Source: an uncultured Chlamydiales bacterium (lineage in GTDB: Bacteria > Chlamydiota > Chlamydiia > Chlamydiales > Rhabdochlamydiaceae). Taken from it: 64,000 bases of DNA. Below the pieces are notes generated by a model. That model was not told where the DNA came from and did not search any database. It worked only from the letters and a program-made list of their open reading frames with translations. Made by a program: the position numbers and the translations under genes. Positions 27,136-38,092 of this stretch are shown in pieces. Position 1 is the stretch's first letter; each line of letters starts with the position of its first letter. The stretch spans positions 1,664,001 to 1,728,000 of the forward strand of contig OY969554.1 of the NCBI GenBank assembly GCA_963700985.1, read 5' to 3'.

Positions 27136-27219
27136 TTGGAGGGTTAACCTCTAAAAAGTCAGTACAGTAGCTTGCATTTAATAATGGGAATGCTTTAAAT
27201 TATTGCCAATTTTTCGACT

Positions 27220-27294
27220 GGCCCCATCGTCTAGTTAGGCCTAGGACACCAGATTTTCATTCTGATAACAGGGGTTCGAATCCCCTTGGGGTCA
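27220..27294 (+). tRNA. tRNA-Glu(TTC)
   Basis: Acceptor GGCCCCA/TGGGGTC, anticodon loop TTTTCAT, T-arm AGGGG-TTCGAAT-CCCCT. Confidence 0.94.
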
Positions 27295-27303
27295 TTCTTT
27301 AAT

Positions 27304-27376
27304 GAGACTTTAGCTCAGTCGGTAGAGCACCTCACTTTTAATGAGGGGGTCGATGGTTCGAGTCCATCAAGTCTCA
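27304..27376 (+). tRNA. tRNA-Lys(TTT)
   Basis: Acceptor GAGACTT/AAGTCTC, anticodon arm CCTCA-CTTTTAA-TGAGG, T-arm GATGG-TTCGAGT-CCATC. Confidence 0.96.
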
Positions 27377-27377
27377 A

Positions 27378-27608
27378 ATTTTTTCTCCAAAAAAATTGGA
27401 GAATTGAGCATGTCCGGTGGACATGCGTATGTGACTCGAAGTGAGCGTCGCTTGCGACCGAACCGGGCCCCGAAGGGGGAGTCCATCAACAAGTGATTTT
27501 TCTCCAAAAAAATTGGAGAATTGAACAAGCCATAGACGTGGCTTGTGTATGGACCTCGAAGTGAGCGTCTCCTGCGGCCGAACCGGACCCCGAAGAGCGA
27601 GTCCATCA
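27378..27608 (+). repeat. Two tandem ~120-bp structured repeats linked to the tRNA-Lys 3' end
   Basis: Units at ~27378-27488 and ~27496-27608. GAGTCCATCA occurs at 27360 (in the tRNA), 27479 and 27599. Both units carry the hairpin TTCTCCAA-AAAAA-TTGGAGAA. Confidence 0.92.
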
Positions 27609-27684
27609 TCCCATCTCAATCTTTCCCTAAGCTTTACGTCGAAAAAACTCCAAGAGGGCTAACCCTCTCAATCTCCAATTCCTC

Positions 27685-27852: not shown

Positions 27853-28665
27853 TCACCAGATGAGCTTTGGAGTATAATACTCAGGTATTAAAGCTTGGTT
27901 TGAATAAGGGCCTTGGGTCTGTCCAGTGATTCCGCTTAAGACTAAAAGAGAATCAATCCCTGCTCTTTTGGCGAAAAGAACATCGGTTTCCAATGTATCT
28001 CCTATCATAAGCCCTTTTTTGCCTTTTAACGTCGGTTGTAGTTGTAAAAGATACTCATAGATGTTTCTTTCTGGCTTGCCCATATATTGCACATTCACAC
28101 CCCTCTCCTCCAATAATAAGGCAAAAGTTCCAGCGCAGATTCTATTTATGCCACCATGGGGCGCAATTTTATCCGGATTAGCACATAGGACTACAAGGCC
28201 AGATTTGGCAACGCAATCTATCTCATTAAGGTAGCTGTCCATTTCAACTTTGTCCTTCACATTTAGCGTAAGAACTATCAGTTCTGCCTCTTCCAGTCTG
28301 TCCACGGTTTTTACAGATAATCCACTGCCCATGAAAAGCTCTGTATTTCCTTTAGATCCAAGATGGAAAATATTTTTTATAGAAGGATAGTTGTTTTGAA
28401 GGTCGTCTAAGACAAGCTCTCCCGACGTGATTACCTGAATGTTAGGATCGATACCGAAGGCTTGAATTTTTTGCTGAATGATCCAATTTCTTCTGGGATT
28501 GTTGCTAAGAAAATAAATAGGTTTTTTCAGACTTAGACGATTGACGCAGTCGATCGCTTCTGGGAAGCCTGCTACTCCATCGTGGATAACTCCATGGATA
28601 TCCACGAGAAAAAAGTCGTATTTAGCAATAAGAGAAGAAGCTTTCTCCACGTATTGCGAAATCAT
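27853..28665 (-). CDS. HAD-superfamily subfamily IIA hydrolase/phosphatase
   Basis: Motif I DIHGV, LSNN, ANPD, GKP, MIGDTLETDV..A..AG. Confidence 0.9.
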   Translation of the reverse strand: MISQYVEKASSLIAKYDFFLVDIHGVIHDGVAGFPEAIDCVNRLSLKKPIYFLSNNPRRNWIIQQKIQAFGIDPNIQVITSGELVLDDLQNNYPSIKNIFHLGSKGNTELFMGSGLSVKTVDRLEEAELIVLTLNVKDKVEMDSYLNEIDCVAKSGLVVLCANPDKIAPHGGINRICAGTFALLLEERGVNVQYMGKPERNIYEYLLQLQPTLKGKKGLMIGDTLETDVLFAKRAGIDSLLVLSGITGQTQGPYSNQALIPEYYTPKLIW

Positions 28666-29492
28666 TTACGAAAGAGAATAGATGTAAGTGTCTGATTCGT
28701 AGTCGCTATAACACGTTGGATTGCTCGAAGAGAGAGGCAATCTTCTTCATTCAGGGGCGCACAAAGGGCGCTGCGTACACCGATAGTTGTTCTACATATG
28801 ATGCGCACATCTTCTTTAGCTGTTTCAATGATCTGTCGAACAATTTCTCGCTTTGGGATGGCTAAGACTCCTACTACAATCGCATCATATTCCGAACAGT
28901 CCACTTTTTGCCCTTCGGCCACTAGTATTTTGATTTGCGCTTCCATTTTCATAGTTGACAGGACCTGCCTGGCAATTTGTGCGCGTTCAGGAAGTTTTTC
29001 AACACAGTGCAGATGACATCCTGTCTTTTTGACATAATGAATGGCCGTAATTGGAAAAGCTCCACCTCCAATAAATAACACCTTATCCTTAGATGAAACT
29101 TTTAAAAGAGCTGTCTCATCTCGCGCAAGAGCATTAAACCTCTCGAGATAGGGATGGAATAGGGGATTGTTTGATCGCATAAAATGATTATTTAATCCTT
29201 CATGAATCATTGCATGAGAAAAGGTTCTTTCAATGCAACTATCTACAAATGCATTGAGTTTTCGTGAACGTTCGATAAGGGGCTGATTTTCTGGGGAATT
29301 CATGAACGCTTTTTGATCCTCAAAACTAAGCATGTCACTCAGGATGAGATGTTCAAGAGAATTAAGAGTTGTGAAGCTCTCTTCTTCATCTGCATCGTTT
29401 TGTAAAGAATTCAAAATTGATGCAAAGTTTGTTTGAAAGCGTTGCAAGGGTGTTCCGTGAACTGTTGGATATTGATCTAAAACTGCAGACAT
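28662..29492 (-). CDS. Nicotianamine-synthase-like SAM-dependent aminocarboxypropyl transferase (CntL-like)
   Basis: VLFIGGGAFPITAI (cf. FIGSGPLPLT), YDAIVVGVLAIPK, RTTIGVRSAL. Start MSAVLD at 29492 follows an AAGGAG RBS. Confidence 0.8.
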   Translation of the reverse strand: MSAVLDQYPTVHGTPLQRFQTNFASILNSLQNDADEEESFTTLNSLEHLILSDMLSFEDQKAFMNSPENQPLIERSRKLNAFVDSCIERTFSHAMIHEGLNNHFMRSNNPLFHPYLERFNALARDETALLKVSSKDKVLFIGGGAFPITAIHYVKKTGCHLHCVEKLPERAQIARQVLSTMKMEAQIKILVAEGQKVDCSEYDAIVVGVLAIPKREIVRQIIETAKEDVRIICRTTIGVRSALCAPLNEEDCLSLRAIQRVIATTNQTLTSILFRK

Positions 29493-29493
29493 T

Positions 29494-30222
29494 TTATTTC
29501 TCCTTAGTGCCAATAAGTATAACGTTTTCTCGGCCATCAAGTTTTATATATTCCGGAATACCTCTTCTATTAAAGAGACAGCACTCTTCAATATGAAAAC
29601 CCGCTTTCGCAAAGGTTCTTCGCAACACTACTTCATCTAGAGCATGAAAAAATGAAGGAAGTTCCTGAACAGTTGGATCGTCGGTCAAACTTTGTAAATT
29701 GTGAAATTCGCCAGGCCACCTAGCATTCTGACTTTTTCTCTCTTCATAGAGGGTAATTAGTTTTTTAAGATTATTTGTATAAACAGTGCCAGAAATCGTG
29801 AAAATTTTTCCTCCCGGAGCAAGCCAGGAAAAAAACAGCTCGGCGGCAAGTTCCAACTGATCGCCTGAAAGAAAATGGAGAACCTGTGATGCTAAAATAG
29901 CCGAAAGAGAGCCTTTGGCTATTTTAAGGTCTCGCAAAAAATGCCCTTCTCTTAGCTCTAAATTTTCACGAAATTCAGCAGGACAGGCAGCAGCAATTTT
30001 TTCCAAATGCCGCGCATCTATGTCATTTGCGATAACGCGTGCTCTATTGCAAAGAGCTGGAAGAGTGGCCACACCGAATGCAGCTCCAATGTCGAGAACA
30101 GGCTTTTTTGCCTCTGCTGCAAACTCAATAAATTGTTCCATGATTTCATTCGGGGCAAGAGCAGTACGGCCCTGTTGGTTACAGGTGATTGTCGATGAAT
30201 TTTTTCCTAATTCTTTTAACAT
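29494..30222 (-). CDS. Class I SAM-dependent methyltransferase
   Basis: VLDIGAAFG, VIANDID, SQVLHFL, LAPGG. Confidence 0.9.
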   Translation of the reverse strand: MLKELGKNSSTITCNQQGRTALAPNEIMEQFIEFAAEAKKPVLDIGAAFGVATLPALCNRARVIANDIDARHLEKIAAACPAEFRENLELREGHFLRDLKIAKGSLSAILASQVLHFLSGDQLELAAELFFSWLAPGGKIFTISGTVYTNNLKKLITLYEERKSQNARWPGEFHNLQSLTDDPTVQELPSFFHALDEVVLRRTFAKAGFHIEECCLFNRRGIPEYIKLDGRENVILIGTKEK

Positions 30223-31382
30223 GCACCCACCAGTTCAGAATAATTATGAGAGTGTTCGGCGAAAGCTACATACTTTGCGCGAAGTTCCAGAGCACATTGA
30301 TAACTCTCTTCAACGGTCATTCTATGACATTCATAGCCCAGCACTTCTTTCATTATCTGCATATTTTCAGGGCTAAAATGCACAGTTCCATCATCTTCAA
30401 TGTGTGAGACACCTTCAAGATATTGTGCCTTTTTATTAATCTGAACAGCCTCATCCAAAGTAAGATTAGCCGAAAGATCAACCCTTAGGCTTTTTCCATC
30501 CATCCACAGCGGATATCCTCCCGGAAGTCCTTGGGGTCCTGGGGCATGAAGAAGGGTGCTCTTATTATGTAAAGCTGCCATGACGACCTTGATTGCTGAG
30601 GTTGCCGTCATCGGTTGTCCCTCGAGACCTACCAGTCTTCTATACTGTACAGGAACAGCAGAGAAAACTGTTTTTTGATCAATGCTTTCCGTAATGTCTC
30701 TTCCTTCAAGTAGAGCAGTGTAATGAAATAGCTCAGGATCGGGATATCCGTGACGGGAGATATAGTGAGAGATGTAATGATGGGCCACAAGTCGAACCAC
30801 TACATCTTTCGGATGTTTTTGCAAGTAGGCAGCAGTAGAATATTGCAATGCCGGGATGACATTTGCGACATTGCCAATTCCCGTATTGGGTGTAAGTCCG
30901 ATTTTGCCCAGTACTGGATTGACAATGTCCGGAAAGGCCGCATTGATAAAAAAAGAATCTATGCCACTTTTTTTGATTCCCCTAGCGATGTTATATGCGA
31001 GGGGTAGATGCATGGGAAGCCATGGCCCCAAATATGCAGCATTGATCTTTTGATAAGCTATCTTAGGAAGCTCTGTGACGATTCGCCAAGATTGAATGCT
31101 TGCAGCATTGAAAATCACTTCTGGCTTGTGCTTAGTGATTAATTCAGCGATCTGATCCACTCGAGTCAGCTCGACGTTTTCAAAAGCCACATGAGGATAG
31201 AGTCCAAATTGAGAAGCAGTAAGCATCGCCATGTTACTTTTGCGCAGCAACAAATCAGAATTTCGGCCCACCACTACAAATTTGACGGTCTGATTCTCTG
31301 GCATTTTGGTCATTATATCGAGAACATGTGTTCCGATATTTCCCAATCCAAAAATCATTAAAACTGGCATACGACCTCTCAA
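30216..31382 (-). CDS. NAD(P)-binding Rossmann-fold oxidoreductase of unknown specificity
   Basis: N-terminal GLGNIG; INAAFPDIVNP, GIGNVAN, PGPQGLPGGYP. Alternative ATG start at 31370. Confidence 0.7.
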   Translation of the reverse strand: MRGRMPVLMIFGLGNIGTHVLDIMTKMPENQTVKFVVVGRNSDLLLRKSNMAMLTASQFGLYPHVAFENVELTRVDQIAELITKHKPEVIFNAASIQSWRIVTELPKIAYQKINAAYLGPWLPMHLPLAYNIARGIKKSGIDSFFINAAFPDIVNPVLGKIGLTPNTGIGNVANVIPALQYSTAAYLQKHPKDVVVRLVAHHYISHYISRHGYPDPELFHYTALLEGRDITESIDQKTVFSAVPVQYRRLVGLEGQPMTATSAIKVVMAALHNKSTLLHAPGPQGLPGGYPLWMDGKSLRVDLSANLTLDEAVQINKKAQYLEGVSHIEDDGTVHFSPENMQIMKEVLGYECHRMTVEESYQCALELRAKYVAFAEHSHNYSELVGAC

Positions 31383-32734
31383 TCTACATAAAAGAAAGCA
31401 GGAAATATTTCGTTAGCGTCGGTCTCGACCCGAATCTGCCTGACTTCTCGGACAACTTGTTCTGGATCACCCGCCATTACAGCAATCCAGGCATAATCAC
31501 TATTTCCTATCGCGGATACATGAGCATGATCTTTAGCTACCATTGTGTGAGTGCATTGCATGCCTTCGGGAAGATAAACTTTCTTAAAATTACTTTCTTG
31601 GGGCAACCCATAACCGATACAAATACTTGGTTTTGGATCCGGTCTATAAGAAAAGAAAGGCAAGTGTTTTCCGCCAAAAATACCCACGTCGATGATATGT
31701 TGTGCAATTTCTACGGGAGTTTTCCCAAATGAGTAAGCGAGTTGTTCTATCATGGCAGCTCCCCCCATTCTTCCGAAATTGGCATCGATCAAATACGCCC
31801 CTGAATCATTGACTAAAAATTCGCAGTGGAAGTAACCATTTTTAAACGTCGATCTTTCGATCAAAGTATTGATCTCTTTGAACATGAGAGATGCGTTTTT
31901 TTGAATAAGAGGATCATTGTTACGCGGGAAATGACATGCCGTTTCTGTCATGGCAATGCGCGATCTTCCTGTAAATCCTAAAAAGGCTGGTTTCCCTTCA
32001 ATACAATACCCTTCTAAACTGTAGAGCTCTCCAGTAATGTACGCTTGTACTAGCCATTCAAAATCACCTAAATTGTTTAACCCAGCTCTTACTAATAGGG
32101 TGCAAATCTCCGTTTCACTCAATTTTTCTTGAAGCTTAATTGTACCCAGCGCGCCTGAGCCACGAGAAGGTTTGACAACTACAGCGCCATGCAAGTCTAT
32201 CATGTGATGGATCTCTTTGAGAGGTATCGCGTTCATTGAAAAGTAGAGGGTTTTGGGGCTGTATTCTGGAATGAGCTGCGAGACTAGTTTTTTATCCGTC
32301 AGCCTTAAAATGGCTTGATCAGGACCGGGTACATTGAATTTCTCCGCTAAGCGACGTGCGATTGGCAATCTCATATCTGTAAGAGATGTAATACCGGCCA
32401 CTTCTCCAAATTGTTCCCAGTGCTCTTCTAAAAATTTTTCCGCATTTTCATATGAACTTACATCTACATCATACCATTCGCACTGGCGGACATCATTTGC
32501 AACCTGCGGAGAGTAGCCTTTCATGTCTGCAAGTATTACGGGCTCATAACCTAAGCCATTCACGGCGCTTTTTATATATTTTGCAATAGCCCATGCTGTC
32601 GCTACTATAATGATCTTTTTCGGTTTCTGTTCCTCATGTGAACTAGTTGCGAGCGATTCTTCCTGAGCGGAGATTGATACAGAAGCATTAAGGGTCAATA
32701 AAAACAGAAAAGTTACAAGAAATTTATACTTCAT
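31379..32734 (-). CDS. ATP-grasp amino-acid ligase-like protein with N-terminal signal-peptide-like segment
   Basis: LTDK, VVKPSRGSGALG, QAYITGELYSLEG, GYFHCEF, LIDANFGRMGG. Confidence 0.85.
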   Translation of the reverse strand: MKYKFLVTFLFLLTLNASVSISAQEESLATSSHEEQKPKKIIIVATAWAIAKYIKSAVNGLGYEPVILADMKGYSPQVANDVRQCEWYDVDVSSYENAEKFLEEHWEQFGEVAGITSLTDMRLPIARRLAEKFNVPGPDQAILRLTDKKLVSQLIPEYSPKTLYFSMNAIPLKEIHHMIDLHGAVVVKPSRGSGALGTIKLQEKLSETEICTLLVRAGLNNLGDFEWLVQAYITGELYSLEGYCIEGKPAFLGFTGRSRIAMTETACHFPRNNDPLIQKNASLMFKEINTLIERSTFKNGYFHCEFLVNDSGAYLIDANFGRMGGAAMIEQLAYSFGKTPVEIAQHIIDVGIFGGKHLPFFSYRPDPKPSICIGYGLPQESNFKKVYLPEGMQCTHTMVAKDHAHVSAIGNSDYAWIAVMAGDPEQVVREVRQIRVETDANEIFPAFFYVD

Positions 32735-32997
32735 TTTTGCCTCACTAAATTTTACAGTGTTTTAAAAGAAAAGCATACATTTTAAAAAAAAATTATGGAA
32801 TTGTCAATTTTAAATTTTGCACGTGCTTTTAGATTTCAAGCCTTTATTCATTCCGATCCATAGCATTCATTTTCTACTGTCTTACGAAGACTTCGCTTTC
32901 AAAAAAACATTTAGTTTATATTCTTTTTCGCATCATTTTTTCTGTTAGCGATGAGAAAAATAACTGATCTAAAAACCACTCTTTAGAGAGGAAATAT

Positions 32998-33483: not shown

Positions 33484-34941
33484 ATGTCAGCAATACAATT
33501 AACAGATCCGAGTGCAAGATGAGCCATCTTAGCGAATATTCATGCGTTGAGTGATGGGATCGCTGCCAAAAGCAGATTCGAAGAGCGTGTTCCGGAAGAT
33601 ATGATGCATTCTATTTTTGATGTTTTTCTCACTCTCAGAGAAAGCGCTCAAGCATTGCCATGTAGCCGTAACATGTATAAGGTGGTCTCTAAGACGCTAG
33701 GTCTTCAAAACATCCTTCCTCTGCTTTCACAAGGATTTACGAAGATCTCCATTGTAAATCCTCCTGCTCCTGACGGCACTCCTTTTTCAAAATATAGCCC
33801 GCCCTTGCGCTTTTCCTGTTTTAATTATGATCCAAGTTCTACGCACTTAATAACAGGGGACAATGGATCTGGGAAACGTACCAAGGTGAGGGTATGGGAT
33901 CGAGTTGGCAAGCTTGTATCTGAGTTACAAGGCGACTTTTTGCATAGCGTGAGATCAGTGCAGCTTGATATGCAAAGCAAACGTGCACTAGCTTCTGCTA
34001 GTAGTAATGATGATTCTTCTGTGAAGCTATGGGATCTTACGACAGGGAATCTGCTCTATGGGAAACGTCCCTTTTCGGTAAGTAACCCATCCGCTGTTTG
34101 TACTGGCTTAAATATGGGTAGTATTCTTTGTGGTGCGTCTAACGGTCGCATTCAATCGATCAACCCTGCTTTTCCCGGGGATCGTATAAAGTCCCCTTTT
34201 TTTGGTGAAGAAGACGGGAGCCGTGTAACATGGATTTGCGATGCTGCGCAAAGCGATAGGGTCTTTAGTTGTAATACAGAAAATGTGCTGAAAATTTGGG
34301 ATCGAAACACGAGAACTTGTCTTTCTACAAGGAAAGAGGTCGCAAGCGAATCAGAGAAACTTTTCTACGCTGCTTCAGAAAATCGACTCTTTGTAGGGGC
34401 TAGCAAAAGATATGTGCACGAATTCAATGCTTCCACTGGAGTGCTTTGCAAGGTTTATGAGGTGTCTGATGAGACAGCCACGCTTTTCACTTGGCACTAT
34501 GATTCTGTAAAAAAATGGATCTTTGCTGGTTTTTATTGCAAAGTTGCAGAGGCAACAAAAACCAAGATTGTAGTTTGGGAGCAAAAAACAAGTAAGGTTC
34601 TTTACACATTTATAATTTCAGTTGCTAAGGGAAATCGCTATCCTCTTAAGCAGATCGACTTTGATCCAATTTCAAATACGCTACTTACCGCTGGCCGTGG
34701 AGTGCAACTATGGAGGCTATCCAATGCAACTGGCAAATTATTAGCAGTAATCTCTAAAGACGGTGACGCGCGGGTCAAGTGGGACCGCAACAATGCTTTG
34801 CTTGCTATATTCAAAAAATATCGAGATGAATCTGATCCAGAATCTGGAACATTAACGCTTTTGGACTACTCTAACCCCTCATTGCAGAAGCCAAAAGCCC
34901 GAGAAGAATCCAAGGAATTTAAAGAAGGAAAAGGAGAATAG
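33484..34941 (+). CDS. F-box-like/WD40-repeat protein; in-frame TGA at 33520-33522 (possible pseudogene, or TTG start at 33547)
   Basis: VPEDMMHSIFDVFL...CSRNMY F-box-like motif; WD40 ends (VRVWD, SVKLWD, LKIWD, IVVWE, VQLW). Upstream in-frame ATG has a GAGG RBS. Confidence 0.75.
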
Positions 34942-35075: not shown

Positions 35076-35489
35076 ATGTGTGTAGCAATAAGTGAAAGAG
35101 AATTCGCAAATTCTAATTATAGCATGGCTTCATTTTCAGGGTATCTGGCTAATCGCGTTGTGGGCTTTGCCAATGGGCCTGACGATCGCGAGATGTCTTG
35201 TATGGAAATGCTCGGCCGTCGAGTCGCAGCAGAGCTTTGCTATGCGCTTCTATGCGTTACGGCATTGATTGAAACGGTTGTGCGCCTGGCGATGACTTTG
35301 ATTGCGGTTTTACTTGTTTCCCTTTTTGTCGATGATGGTGCAAAATCTTTGAAAATATTTGCACTTACCAGTTTGCAATACGGAATCGACGCGGCTTTAC
35401 GTTGTTTTATGGCCCTTGGGCACAATCTCAAGTGCAATAAAGTAGACTACAAAGATCTTGGCCTCTGTCAAATGTCATTATGGGTCTAA
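35076..35489 (+). CDS. Small membrane protein, Inc-like paralog 1
   Basis: AAGGAG RBS; long bilobed hydrophobic segment; similar to the next two ORFs. Confidence 0.75.
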   Translation: MCVAISEREFANSNYSMASFSGYLANRVVGFANGPDDREMSCMEMLGRRVAAELCYALLCVTALIETVVRLAMTLIAVLLVSLFVDDGAKSLKIFALTSLQYGIDAALRCFMALGHNLKCNKVDYKDLGLCQMSLWV

Positions 35490-35490
35490 C

Positions 35491-35892
35491 ATGTGCGTTA
35501 ATATAAGCAATCAGAGCGTGGCTAATTATGATGTGATAGATCTATCTGCCACCGCCTATCTCATCAACTTAATTACAGAATTTCGTAACGATCAAGACTC
35601 ATCAGAGGTTATAAAGGTTGGCAAAAAAGTGATCGGAGCACTCTGCTTTGCAGGCTTGCTGATCGCTGCCGCTCTCGAGCATCTCATGCGTATGGTATTT
35701 GCCGCTCTGGCCGCTTTACCTGCGGCTTTATGCTTTTCTGATGGCGCAAGCTGGGCGGGCAGAATGGCCGGGATGTCTTGGGTCTTTCTAGGCGACCATG
35801 TGGCGCGCTGTGTAGTAGCGCAGGTGAAGAATATTGCAGAGAGTAAATTTTCTTTTGAAGATCTTGCTCCTTGTCCGATTTTTGCCCTTTAA
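35491..35892 (+). CDS. Small membrane protein, Inc-like paralog 2
   Basis: Start MCVNIS at 35491, 1 nt after the previous stop; shared hydrophobic and D..RC..N motifs. Confidence 0.75.
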   Translation: MCVNISNQSVANYDVIDLSATAYLINLITEFRNDQDSSEVIKVGKKVIGALCFAGLLIAAALEHLMRMVFAALAALPAALCFSDGASWAGRMAGMSWVFLGDHVARCVVAQVKNIAESKFSFEDLAPCPIFAL

Positions 35893-35927
35893 AGAAGCGT
35901 AAGTTTAACAAAAAGAGAGGAGGTTTT

Positions 35928-36566
35928 ATGTGTTATGGTCTAACAAACAATAATATGCGTTCTTACGAGCAGTCCGATAACTGCTTAGCACCAGTAGCTG
36001 GTTTTGCTCTTTATGAAGTAAATTATTTTGTTCTCAATTTGAATTATTGTGAGTGGACGGCGCAGTATGCTGCTGGAAAGATCCTAGGCTCTCTAGGTTA
36101 TATGGCTGTTATGGTAGCTGCTGTAGTTGAAGCGGTGGTTCTTTTGGCTTTAAGCGTAATTGCACTTTTACCTTCTGTGCTGTTTAAAAATGGCCTTGGC
36201 CACGTTGCGATAGTTGCTTACACGGCGATGATATCGCTTATAGACACACCTGTACGTTGTGTTTCTGGGTTTGTTCAAAACGTATTGTTAAATCAAGAAA
36301 AAAGCTTCGAAAGGCTCAATCTTTTAACGTGCTTGGGTTCTTTTTCCTCTTCTTGTGCACGCTCTGAAGCTGTACCTGTGCCTGATGCTGAAGATGACGT
36401 GGCGGATGAAGAACTTTTTGCGCAAGTTCAAGAGATTGTGGCGAAGGGATCCAAGTTGGCCAATGAGGACAAAGAGAAAAAAGGATTACTCCGCAAGTTA
36501 GCTGATAGGTTCAATCTTTTTCAAAAACAGAAATCAGAAAGAGATCTGTCCGGGAAAAAAACCTAA
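35928..36566 (+). CDS. Membrane protein, Inc-like paralog 3 with charged C-terminal tail
   Basis: GGAGG RBS, start MCYGLT at 35928; same motifs as paralogs 1 and 2. Confidence 0.75.
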   Translation: MCYGLTNNNMRSYEQSDNCLAPVAGFALYEVNYFVLNLNYCEWTAQYAAGKILGSLGYMAVMVAAVVEAVVLLALSVIALLPSVLFKNGLGHVAIVAYTAMISLIDTPVRCVSGFVQNVLLNQEKSFERLNLLTCLGSFSSSCARSEAVPVPDAEDDVADEELFAQVQEIVAKGSKLANEDKEKKGLLRKLADRFNLFQKQKSERDLSGKKT

Positions 36567-36573
36567 AAACCTC

Positions 36574-38010
36574 TTAGCAATTGATCTTTTCGGGCGCCCT
36601 TTTGGCGCCCTTTTTTTTATCTACTTCTGCTGCATGCAAACGCACTTCAATCGCCATACCTGTAACAGGCCTTTCTTTAAGCAGGTTGAGTGCCGCTTCG
36701 GCTACTTGAGAGGGAGTGAGAAGCTTATTTAGATCCTCTTCGGGGAAATAAGCGCTGCGCATGCGCGAATGCGTGCGTTGTGGAATAAGCGTGTTTACAT
36801 TTAGCTCAGGTCTCTCTTCGGCCAGGGCTTGTGTGAAATTCACCACGGCCGCTTTGGCCGCGGAGTAGATTGCATACGTTTTTCTGCCGCGTGAATAGGC
36901 AGAGGAGGCGATGTTTATCATGTCGCCCCCTTCTTTGATCTCTGCAAATTTGCATGCAAAAATCACGCTGGTGAGATTAGCGGCAATCAGTTCTTCGATC
37001 TCTTGAGTCGTAAGCTCTTCCACGGCTTTTAACTTAAATAATCCGACGCAATTGATTAGTCCATCAATCGGACCATGTTCTTGCGCGAGCTTCGCAAAAA
37101 TCTTTTGTGTTTGTTCAGGCGAGGTGAGATCCGCGGCATACTCTGGGGCACTGCGCGAAAGCAATAGTGGCGTTGCCCCTTCCAGACGCAGAAGTTTTGC
37201 AATGGCCTGTCCAATATCGCCGGTGCCTCCAGTAATCGCATAGCATTTACCCTGAATAGAGCGGCTTTCGGCGTGAAGGTTGGGTTTTGGGCGCGTACGC
37301 CGAAAAAGCTGTTCGGCCAGATAGAGGTCGAGATCTGTAGTGATCTTAATGTTCGACTCTTCTCCTTTGGCAACATGAATGGGGTGGCCTAAAGCCAAGA
37401 CAAGCGCGCAATCATCGGTTGCAGTGAGGTTTTTGGTGCGTGCCTCTTCGTGCGCCTTCAGAATAAGGGGATAGGAGAAGCTTTGAGGAGTCTGGCCTCG
37501 CAGATACTCGTGCCGTGGTGGAATCGTATCAATGGTTTCAGAATTGCCTGAATGTACAATCGTATCTGCCGAGGGGATGCACGTATCTGCTGCGCCATGC
37601 AGCTTTGCGATTCGTATGTTTTCCTGTAAAATTTCTTCCGAGACAAAAGGCCGAACGGCATCGTGGATGACCACGTGGCTGGTCTCTTTGGGGCAGGCTA
37701 AAAGTCCAAGATAAGAGGAGTCTTGGCGTGTCTCTCCACCGGCAACGATACGGATTTTATCTCGGCTCAATTCTGGCAGAAGAGTTTTAAGCTCCTTTTC
37801 TACTTCTTCGCTCCATTCCATCGGACAGACTAAAATAATCTGTGCAAATAGCTCGCAAGCGAGAAAACTCTCAAGCGTGTGTATATAGATTTTTTTGCCC
37901 GCTAGCGTATGGAACTGCTTGGGCAGAGAGCTCTTAAACCGGGCGCCTCTTCCCCCCATGAGGAGGATGGCATTGATCAAAACTTGTGTGTGCATTAGAG
38001 TTTTCAGCAT
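36574..38010 (-). CDS. IspD/TarI cytidylyltransferase fused to SDR reductase (Bcs1-like CDP-ribitol synthase)
   Basis: GGRGARF..PKQF, GGETRQDS, HDAVRPF, GQTPQ, NIKITT; then TGGTGDIG, SSAYSRGR..YAIYSAAKAAVVNFTQALAEE. Start at 38010 or 37995. Confidence 0.82.
   Translation of the reverse strand: MLKTLMHTQVLINAILLMGGRGARFKSSLPKQFHTLAGKKIYIHTLESFLACELFAQIILVCPMEWSEEVEKELKTLLPELSRDKIRIVAGGETRQDSSYLGLLACPKETSHVVIHDAVRPFVSEEILQENIRIAKLHGAADTCIPSADTIVHSGNSETIDTIPPRHEYLRGQTPQSFSYPLILKAHEEARTKNLTATDDCALVLALGHPIHVAKGEESNIKITTDLDLYLAEQLFRRTRPKPNLHAESRSIQGKCYAITGGTGDIGQAIAKLLRLEGATPLLLSRSAPEYAADLTSPEQTQKIFAKLAQEHGPIDGLINCVGLFKLKAVEELTTQEIEELIAANLTSVIFACKFAEIKEGGDMINIASSAYSRGRKTYAIYSAAKAAVVNFTQALAEERPELNVNTLIPQRTHSRMRSAYFPEEDLNKLLTPSQVAEAALNLLKERPVTGMAIEVRLHAAEVDKKKGAKRAPEKINC
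36592..36618 (+). terminator. Intrinsic terminator of the Inc-like cluster
   Basis: GGGCGCC-CTTTT-GGCGCCC followed by T8; overlaps the last codons of the convergent gene. Confidence 0.75.
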
Positions 38011-38019
38011 ATCAGATAA

Positions 38020-38092
38020 GCCTAAGTAGCTCAACTGGCAGAGCAGCGCATTCGTAATGCGAAGGTTGTCGGTTCAATTCCGGTCTTAGGCA
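38020..38092 (+). tRNA. tRNA-Thr(CGT)
   Basis: Acceptor GCCTAAG/CTTAGGC, anticodon loop TTCGTAA, T-loop TTCAATT. Confidence 0.93.

Follow-up and report, generated by a model that had tools for sequence, protein, structure and literature searches.

What would a host-dependent chlamydia do with an enzyme of the nicotianamine synthase (NAS) family, and what could it make with it? This question is raised by a five-gene block in an uncultured Chlamydiales bacterium of the Rhabdochlamydiaceae (assembly GCA_963700985.1), located within a stretch of 64,000 nucleotides (nt) of contig OY969554.1 (positions 1,664,001 to 1,728,000; hereafter the window, whose own coordinates are used throughout). The block, at 27853-32734, encodes an ATP-grasp ligase, a Rossmann-fold oxidoreductase, a methyltransferase dependent on S-adenosylmethionine (SAM), a NAS-like enzyme and a hydrolase of the HAD superfamily. 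We find that this five-gene block is rare and, judging from genome comparisons, horizontally acquired, and that it probably makes an undescribed small molecule. The original prediction for this DNA, made from its letters, had proposed a methylated aminocarboxypropyl-amide metallophore or a host-modulating product, of which the metallophore reading seems plausible.

The five-gene unit and its enzymes

The list of open reading frames (ORFs) agrees with the predicted layout of five intact genes on the minus strand that are joined by overlapping or abutting stop and start codons, and these genes are a real operon-like unit:

27853-28665, minus strand: HAD-IIA hydrolase of the TIGR01459 family, 270 amino acids, intact ORF
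28662-29492, minus strand: NAS-like protein, 276 amino acids from the ATG (ORF open from a TTG at 29540), intact ORF
29494-30222, minus strand: class I SAM-dependent methyltransferase, 242 amino acids, intact ORF
30216-31382, minus strand: NAD(P)-binding Rossmann oxidoreductase, 388 amino acids, intact ORF
31379-32734, minus strand: ATP-grasp ligase, predicted L-amino-acid-ligase/PurT type, 451 amino acids, intact ORF

The gene structure is a direct observation: overlaps of 4 nt join the ATP-grasp to the Rossmann gene and the NAS-like to the HAD gene, one of 7 nt joins the Rossmann to the methyltransferase gene, and the methyltransferase and NAS-like genes either overlap by 47 nt with the TTG start or are separated by a 1-nt spacer with the ATG at 29490-29492, which an alignment with six homologues favours over the TTG. 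All five frames are full-length by comparison with their homologues. One might still take the genes for a chance neighbourhood or the decaying relic of a transfer, with no working unit, given that a single genome in the order carries the block and that another assembly of a near-identical strain shows a frameshifted methyltransferase-NAS fusion. Against this stand the five intact frames with their coupled stop and start codons, the conserved catalytic motifs and a gene order that is kept in the metagenome contig L051 (described below) at 42-49% protein identity, and we give the idea of a relic hardly any credence.

Profile searches with hidden Markov models upheld the original family calls for the NAS-like, ATP-grasp, methyltransferase and HAD proteins; family and fold assignments, like the conservation of the catalytic Glu in the NAS-like family, were observed directly. 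The NAS-like protein scores 35.4 bits on the Pfam family NAS (PF03059; cut-off 27.1) over residues 80-289, and a profile of seven homologues retrieves from the PDB the thermonicotianamine synthase MtNAS of Methanothermobacter (3fpe, E 2.3e-24, positions 57-291 against 32-260), a sequence-profile match that is almost full-length and covers the two-domain architecture of an N-terminal helical and a C-terminal Rossmann SAM domain. The same profile matches CntL (7c7m) at E 1.6e-9 and in the C-terminal domain only, and the NCBIfam equivalog model of CntL, NF033601, yields 45.2 bits at a cut-off of 350. On these profiles, the assignment as a NAS-family aminocarboxypropyl transferase that is nearer to the archaeal thermonicotianamine synthase than to CntL appears sound.

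According to PMC10491745, Glu81 and Tyr107 of MtNAS are the residues that deprotonate the acceptor amine. Glu81 falls on the invariant E104 of the NAS-like family in the profile alignment, and the Gly-rich SAM motif LFIGGGAFP is conserved among the homologues. Tyr107 is placed by HMMER opposite an invariant F135 beside a four-residue gap; an invariant Y131-L-E, four residues from F135, equals the Y107-L-E of MtNAS by eye. MtNAS (3FPE/3FPF/3O31) resembles the NAS-like protein as its best solved relative, in the Gly-rich motif and in the position of Glu81, but sequence identity is low and the equivalence of Tyr107 is ambiguous in the alignment. To our knowledge, no ligase, dehydrogenase or methyltransferase has been described as a partner of MtNAS.

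The ATP-grasp protein matches Pfam ATP-grasp_4 at 33.2 bits (cut-off 27) and has no sequence match in the PDB at E <= 0.1. Its AlphaFold2 (AF2) model, with a mean predicted local distance difference test (pLDDT) of 90.3, finds its best structural match in the L-amino-acid ligase BL00235 (3vot, Z 29.6, root-mean-square deviation (rmsd) 3.2, 367 aligned residues), followed by PurT (Z 28.7), the PurD-type chain 4dim (28.6), RizA (4wd3, 27.2) and BacD (3vmm, 25.6), with Ddl-type chains at Z ~18 and RimK- and TTL-type chains at Z ~14-16. The ligase family keeps the Lys, Glu, Asp and Asn residues that are characteristic of ATP-grasp enzymes. The protein is thus like the L-amino-acid ligases BL00235, RizA and BacD/YwfE (Z 25.6-29.6) in its three-domain ATP-grasp fold, which matches theirs over ~365-390 residues, and in its ATP/Mg positions, although these ligases are not uniquely near, with PurT/PurD-type enzymes scoring Z 28.6-28.7. 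The model bears out an assignment to the L-amino-acid-ligase/PurT type, predicted to be amide-forming.

An unusual feature of this ligase lies outside its fold. Structural matches of the model start near residue 37, and residues 1 to ~37 comprise a hydrophobic, signal-peptide-like helix (4-23) followed by a disordered polar linker (pLDDT < 50 at residues 22-33). Besides the window protein, 6 of its 9 homologues at 41% identity or more possess this leader, which is kept as a feature and not as a sequence; the unrelated ATP-grasp protein of L051 also begins with a hydrophobic leader, and the homologue P0136, at 50% identity, has none. We know of no L-amino-acid ligase with such a leader, and our literature searches found no report of one with a leader or with a NAS-like partner. 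If the leader directs export, part of the pathway would work outside the cytoplasm, which we consider improbable. It could also be that the exported ligase acts in the periplasm, in the lumen of the vacuole or in the host and couples an amino-acid-like unit to a protein or the cell envelope, with a macromolecule as the thing modified. The recurrence of leader and polar linker outside the fold in the window protein, in six of nine homologues and in the L051 ligase would fit this idea, and the TLC translocases of the genome (see below) presumably import host nucleotides, so that ATP must cross the periplasm. On the other side, the fold is that of small-molecule L-amino-acid ligases and not of ATP-grasp enzymes that modify proteins or peptidoglycan, with Ddl- and RimK/TTL-type chains scoring lower; a leader is missing from the NAS-like, methyltransferase and Rossmann proteins, which depend on SAM and NAD(P)H in the cytoplasm; the leader may be a mere membrane anchor; and P0136 does without one. 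Modification of a macromolecule is accordingly a distinctly unlikely purpose of the ligase.

The Rossmann protein scores below the cut-off of every Pfam and NCBIfam family, and Ldh_1 gives no match at E <= 0.01. It has homologues in at least 379 clusters, nearly all unnamed, and the Protein Atlas offers only unnamed or 'Sacchrp_dh_NADP' clusters. Its AF2 model (pLDDT 95.3) adopts the two-domain fold of lactate and malate dehydrogenases (LDH/MDH), with malate dehydrogenase 6qss as a match (Z 23.6, rmsd 3.3, 279 aligned residues), nine further LDH/MDH-type entries at Z 19.7-23.5 and GH4 enzymes at Z 16-20; template modelling (TM) scores from Foldseek are ~0.5-0.56. The original description as a Rossmann enzyme different from the opine dehydrogenase CntM holds in that the protein is not of CntM type, and can now be made more specific as one of the LDH/MDH fold. 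A GLGNIG motif and an Arg-Asn after the second strand suggest NADP(H) as cofactor, and the family conserves His202, His206 and Arg210. A reading as saccharopine or carboxyspermidine dehydrogenase was abandoned for the LDH/MDH fold, since sequence matches to it were weak and N-terminal (E 0.04-0.08) and structural matches to saccharopine-dehydrogenase-type chains reach only Z 10-12.

The methyltransferase is of class I, with 35.9 bits on Methyltransf_25 (cut-off 27) and 28.4 bits on Methyltransf_11 (cut-off 21.2), and among proteins of solved structure it comes closest to plant phosphoethanolamine N-methyltransferases (E 7.3e-8, SAM-binding core only). In another assembly of a near-identical strain, a protein of 492 amino acids (P0128) has the methyltransferase fused in frame to the NAS-like ORF through a one-base shift near the methyltransferase C-terminus (window 29494-29560), which could reflect either an error of assembly or a fusion that exists in nature.

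The HAD protein belongs to NCBIfam TIGR01459 (HAD-IIA; 162.7 bits, cut-off 103.75). Its motif I reads D22-I-H24-G-V; at the +2 position, W, F or Y is found in its relatives and in PDB 6nq4 (D-x-[H/W/F/Y]-G-V), and canonical NagD/PNPPase chains read D-I-D-G-V. The original label of a phosphatase is an insecure assumption because the Asp+2 general acid/base of HAD phosphatases is absent, both from this protein and from its family. The sole mention of TIGR01459 found in the literature gives no function.

Acquisition and rarity

Several features frame the unit:

27219-27295, plus strand: tRNA-Glu
27303-27377, plus strand: tRNA-Lys(UUU), the landmark adjoining the inserted block
27380-27637: two tandem units, each of ~117-120 nt, between tRNA-Lys and the cluster
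27650-27671, minus strand: terminator-like hairpin of 9 pairs followed by a T-run, ~180 nt past the HAD stop codon
32779-32807, minus strand: promoter-like site TTGACA-17-TAAAAT, ~45 nt before the ATP-grasp gene begins

The predicted location beside tRNA-Lys was correct, with 476 nt from this gene to the HAD stop codon and both tRNA genes on the plus strand. The promoter-like site is the best of the 8 found (11 of 12 consensus matches), though their total does not exceed the shuffle expectation of 12.0, and the 6 terminator-like sites equal the shuffle mean, leaving position as the sole hint in either case. A hairpin, TTCTCCA-A7-TTGGAGAA, is found in each tandem unit, whose end repeats the 3' terminus of tRNA-Lys, GAGTCCATCA; the two units may be debris of repeated integration events. 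A search for attachment (att) sites revealed no matching repeat at the far side of the cluster, and no integrase or transposase was seen. An A-rich 18-mer at 32786-32803 (15 of 18 positions matching) was considered as an att repeat and judged a chance match, as it overlaps the promoter-like site.

Comparison within the genus shows what the site looks like when the block is missing. The flank consisting of the 3' end of pyrH, frr, tRNA-Glu and tRNA-Lys is present in all five other genomes of the genus. In three of these five, on which the reading of synteny rests, tRNA-Lys is followed by small paralogous membrane proteins and then by a gene for an IspD-SDR (short-chain dehydrogenase) fusion, with no cluster in between; both bounding tRNAs are visible only in G003 and G004, where tRNA-Lys and tRNA-Thr lie 5.3-5.9 kb apart compared to 10.6 kb here. 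Neither the five cluster proteins nor a neighbouring WD40 protein find a match in the corresponding intervals of the three genomes.

The genes are scarce beyond the genus as well. The NAS-like gene occurs in 1 of 41 relatives and 1 of 401 genomes of the order, its own genome in both cases, and in 2 of 401 genomes of the phylum, namely its own and one with a marginal match of 18.7 bits; the ATP-grasp gene likewise occurs in 1 of the 41 relatives, and the HAD gene in five, with the other four at 28-33% identity and none of these in the genus. A word-indexed search of 5.8 billion clusters returned 7 NAS-like relatives (50-100% identity). When 1.84 billion representatives were searched exhaustively with a profile, 34 matched at E <= 1e-30 and 1247 at E <= 1e-3, among which two fall into the NAS-like subfamily (515 and 264 bits) and the next score at most 204 bits. 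Scanning genome contigs with the single NAS-like protein gave 102 pattern matches with no relative among them, and an alignment-based scan gave 49 loci, which were distant and CntL-like only (20-36% identity; Bacillota and few others). Identical short contigs covering cluster and flanks are present in one soil-metagenome DNA run, which may derive from the source sample.

The guanine-cytosine (GC) content of the cluster is 41.7% compared to 44.8% for the genome, which puts it at the 6th percentile of 4125 windows of equal length, and the individual genes fall at the 4th-19th percentile of 1083 long ORFs. The original observation of an AT-richer block was thus true, but the effect is modest and codon usage is ordinary. 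Because the block is absent from the syntenic intervals, rare in order and phylum and low in its GC percentile, we read it as acquired; its insertion and rarity are themselves direct observations.

On the far side, the cluster adjoins a WD40 beta-propeller protein of 464 amino acids (33547-34941, plus strand) that is absent from the three same-genus intervals and may have come in together with the cluster or on its own. It is followed by three small paralogous proteins, each hydrophobic in a central segment and without a match to any family (35076-36566, plus strand), of which relatives have roughly three to eight paralogues at the same locus and which resemble inclusion-membrane-type proteins of intracellular bacteria. 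The next gene (36574-38034, minus strand) encodes an IspD-type cytidylyltransferase fused to a short-chain dehydrogenase, with 61-74% identity in same-genus genomes, an architecture that we take to be that of bifunctional CDP-ribitol synthases.

Recurrence of the genes elsewhere

Co-occurrence in other genomes had been set as a test of the original prediction, and as a direct observation the genes do recur together: in the order of contig L051, on contigs of equal size and in 11 plasmid pairs of Rossmann and HAD genes. L051, a metagenome contig of 5.9 kb with 31% GC, carries in order genes for an ATP-grasp protein, the Rossmann protein (49% identity), the methyltransferase (48%) and the NAS-like protein (42%; 39.1 bits on PF03059), with an EamA transporter replacing the HAD hydrolase. 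The original statement that the system has no transporter accordingly stands for the window, where none of the ORFs within or adjoining the cluster encodes one, but not for this related locus, which ends with one.

Outside of L051, homologues of the NAS-like and Rossmann genes reside on equal-sized contigs of 3960 and 4653 bp, and those of the NAS-like and ATP-grasp genes on equal-sized contigs of 1,744,624 and 2,608 bp, the smaller of which has room for these two genes only. If contigs of equal size are counted as shared, at least one partner gene is found at six of the eight known NAS-like loci, and the other two loci are on contigs of at most 2.1 kb. The Rossmann and methyltransferase genes are present at only part of the NAS-like loci, and the conserved core seems to be the ATP-grasp ligase together with the NAS-like enzyme.

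The Rossmann family has its own company. Homologues are encoded on 23 plasmids, 11 of them, all rhizobial, with a TIGR01459 HAD gene 1.8-2.4 kb away, usually separated by a DMT transporter and an alanine racemase. These plasmids account for 11 of the 12 best Rossmann matches, and their HAD proteins also top the list of HAD matches. The pairing of Rossmann and HAD genes is therefore an old one, and the HAD gene, which had looked optional before the plasmids were searched, is part of the unit. On the twelfth plasmid, of Bacillus sp. ZJS3 (L069, 4480-12761), genes follow each other in the order MFS transporter, ATP-grasp, Rossmann, two ATP-grasp, aminotransferase and HAD; this is another uncharacterised, ligase-rich cluster using the same Rossmann family.

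Could the block then serve to take up an opine-like compound and degrade or salvage it, and not to make one? The neighbourhoods of the Rossmann gene on rhizobial and Martelella plasmids do look catabolic, with FAD oxidoreductases and a 2Fe-2S protein, a C45 peptidase, IclR or GntR regulators and ABC or TRAP transporters. The cluster in the window, however, has no oxidase, importer or regulator, and both NAS-family enzymes and ATP-grasp ligases serve biosynthesis, at the expense of SAM and ATP, so that a catabolic role appears highly unlikely.

As an observation in its own right, the LDH-fold family recurs on the plasmids L070, L071 and L072 (rhizobial) and L082 (Martelella) with a TIGR01459 HAD protein, a DMT transporter and an alanine racemase, and two of these records show FAD-oxidoreductase genes resembling opine oxidases nearby, one of them with a 2Fe-2S protein. 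The set of LDH-fold and TIGR01459 HAD proteins on these plasmids may be an undescribed rhizobial module.

Homologues of the ATP-grasp gene exist in 3 of 350 gammaproteobacterial genomes at ~35% identity, and the other four cluster genes were not found in their examined flanks. One of these loci reads PadR, ATP-grasp, a protein of 372 amino acids without assigned family, EamA, PTPS and SDR.

Host SAM supply and candidate product

The genome, a single contig of 2.07 Mb that is 99% complete, has the traits of the host-dependent lineage that the original prediction had assumed. The family of TLC nucleotide translocases is matched at three places compared to none of 14 control genomes, and SAM synthetase is absent in both its bacterial and archaeal forms (PF02773, PF00438 and PF01941 without a match in the genome, found in 10, 10 and 4 control genomes, respectively). 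Because the genome is without SAM synthetase, both SAM-using enzymes of the operon need imported SAM, and one of the three two-domain EamA transporters encoded elsewhere in the genome could be its carrier. The genome contains one PNP_UDP_1 protein; no nucleosidase of TIGR01704 for methylthioadenosine and S-adenosylhomocysteine was detected in it.

In our preferred account, the horizontally acquired operon builds a small nicotianamine-like molecule for which the chelation or transport of metal is the most likely role. We place it somewhat short of an even chance, and infer its substrates, the sequence of reactions, the compound made and the role of that compound as follows. The NAS-like enzyme would move the 3-amino-3-carboxypropyl group of imported SAM onto the amine of an amino-acid-like acceptor and release methylthioadenosine, a step modelled on thermonicotianamine synthase and CntL. 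The ATP-grasp ligase would then activate a carboxylate as acyl phosphate and couple it to an amine to form an amide, with the NAS product or its acceptor supplying either the carboxylate or the amine. In a third step, the LDH/MDH-fold enzyme, probably NADPH-dependent, and the TIGR01459 hydrolase would supply or tailor a 2-oxo- or 2-hydroxy-acid unit; alternatively, the LDH/MDH-fold enzyme may stand in for the opine dehydrogenase CntM. Finally, the methyltransferase would methylate the product.

A role in metal handling is the default because every characterised product of the NAS family chelates or transports metal (PMC10491745, PMC7438024). The nearest comparison are the opine metallophores staphylopine, pseudopaline, yersinopine and bacillopaline, which share with our locus a small operon pairing a NAS-family transferase with an NAD(P)H enzyme. 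According to PMC7438024, characterised clusters have cntL directly followed by cntM, plus exporters (MFS, EamA or MatE) and importers, and homologues of CntM are known from four phyla; the EamA transporter of L051 fits in here, as these are the commonest exporters of opine-zincophore clusters and most such clusters have an exporter of this kind. Cnt systems rely on CntM, whereas here an LDH/MDH-fold dehydrogenase takes its place, an ATP-grasp ligase, a methyltransferase and a HAD hydrolase are added, and there is no importer. The original prediction was thus right that the partners are unlike those of characterised Cnt systems: CntM (PF10100) has no match in the genome, and the positive controls, two Bacillota genomes, gave one match each (E 6.9e-150 and 1.6e-133) beside a CntL-like gene. 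Likewise, its claim of novelty agrees with our full-text literature searches, which found no description of the system; a NAS-like enzyme with an ATP-grasp partner, or in chlamydiae, is undescribed in the full texts searched.

Further parallels come from pathways without Cnt-type enzymes. Plants convert nicotianamine to deoxymugineic acid with NAS, NAAT and DMAS, a route in which the NAS product is tailored by an NAD(P)H reductase. In this comparison, the terminal tailoring of a 2-amino/2-oxo/2-hydroxy acid by an NAD(P)H reductase is alike, but the plant pathway employs an aminotransferase, of which there is none here, its DMAS is an aldo-keto reductase and not of the LDH fold, and it has neither ligase nor methyltransferase. 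Betaine-lipid synthesis by BtaA and BtaB resembles our proposal in that SAM first donates an aminocarboxypropyl group, which is then methylated with further SAM, BtaB being the methylation partner. BtaA differs in using a lipid hydroxyl as acceptor and in having no ligase or dehydrogenase, and it is unrelated to NAS according to PMC10491745.

Several points weigh against the chelator. The window contains no importer, exporter or metal regulator and the genome no CntM, and methylation would usually weaken a carboxylate/amine chelator. The loss of Asp+2 in the HAD protein would leave its chemistry without an assignable type, and HMMER sets Tyr107 of MtNAS against the invariant F135, with the Y131-L-E match nearby as the other option. 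The leader predicts export of the ligase away from cytoplasmic SAM and ATP, a poor fit to a cytoplasmic pathway. In L051, the ATP-grasp protein is only 17% identical to that of the window, so that its slot is filled by a different ligase, and for gene pairs outside L051 and the plasmids a shared contig is deduced from equal contig sizes alone.

These points lend themselves to a main rival in which the same chemistry yields something other than a metallophore, namely an antimetabolite resembling a dipeptide, a compound that modulates the host or a methylated solute of betaine type. The lack of an importer or metal regulator in the window and of CntM in the genome favours it, and the nearest structural relatives of the ligase include RizA and BacD, which make dipeptide antibiotics. 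Related ATP-grasp genes in Pantoea and small gammaproteobacterial genomes are accompanied, in compact clusters, by genes for MFS or EamA exporters, racemases and TauD, the methyltransferase has its best solved relatives among N-methyltransferases that make phosphocholine, and in betaine lipids aminocarboxypropyl transfer precedes N-methylation (BtaA is named in PMC10491745). The match of the methyltransferase is, however, limited to the generic SAM-binding core, no resistance or immunity gene is evident in the window, and the metal binding of all characterised NAS-family products speaks for the nicotianamine-like chelator; we regard a non-metallophore product as possible but doubtful. The most far-reaching reading would have the pathway fed by host SAM and a Sec-exported ligase finish a new class of amide-linked, methylated chelator or host-directed metabolite outside the cytoplasm with host ATP, the LDH-fold reductase and the Asp+2-less HAD protein replacing the opine dehydrogenase, and this we hold to be fairly unlikely.

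For the nicotianamine-like molecule that we favour, the wider meaning lies in the narrow range of known sources of NAS-family products, which are nicotianamine from plants and fungi, a single archaeal product and the CntL/CntM zincophores of a few bacterial phyla. The locus raises the questions which acceptor a thermonicotianamine-synthase-like enzyme uses in bacteria, what role the widespread, unnamed LDH-fold family paired with TIGR01459 hydrolases plays in rhizobia and whether an ATP-grasp ligase can act outside the cytoplasm of an energy parasite. It would add a different NAS architecture, in which the partners are an amide-forming ligase, a reductase of the LDH fold, a methyltransferase and an unusual HAD protein, and therefore a new product. 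Host-dependent bacteria usually lose biosynthetic capacity, and here such capacity would have been gained.

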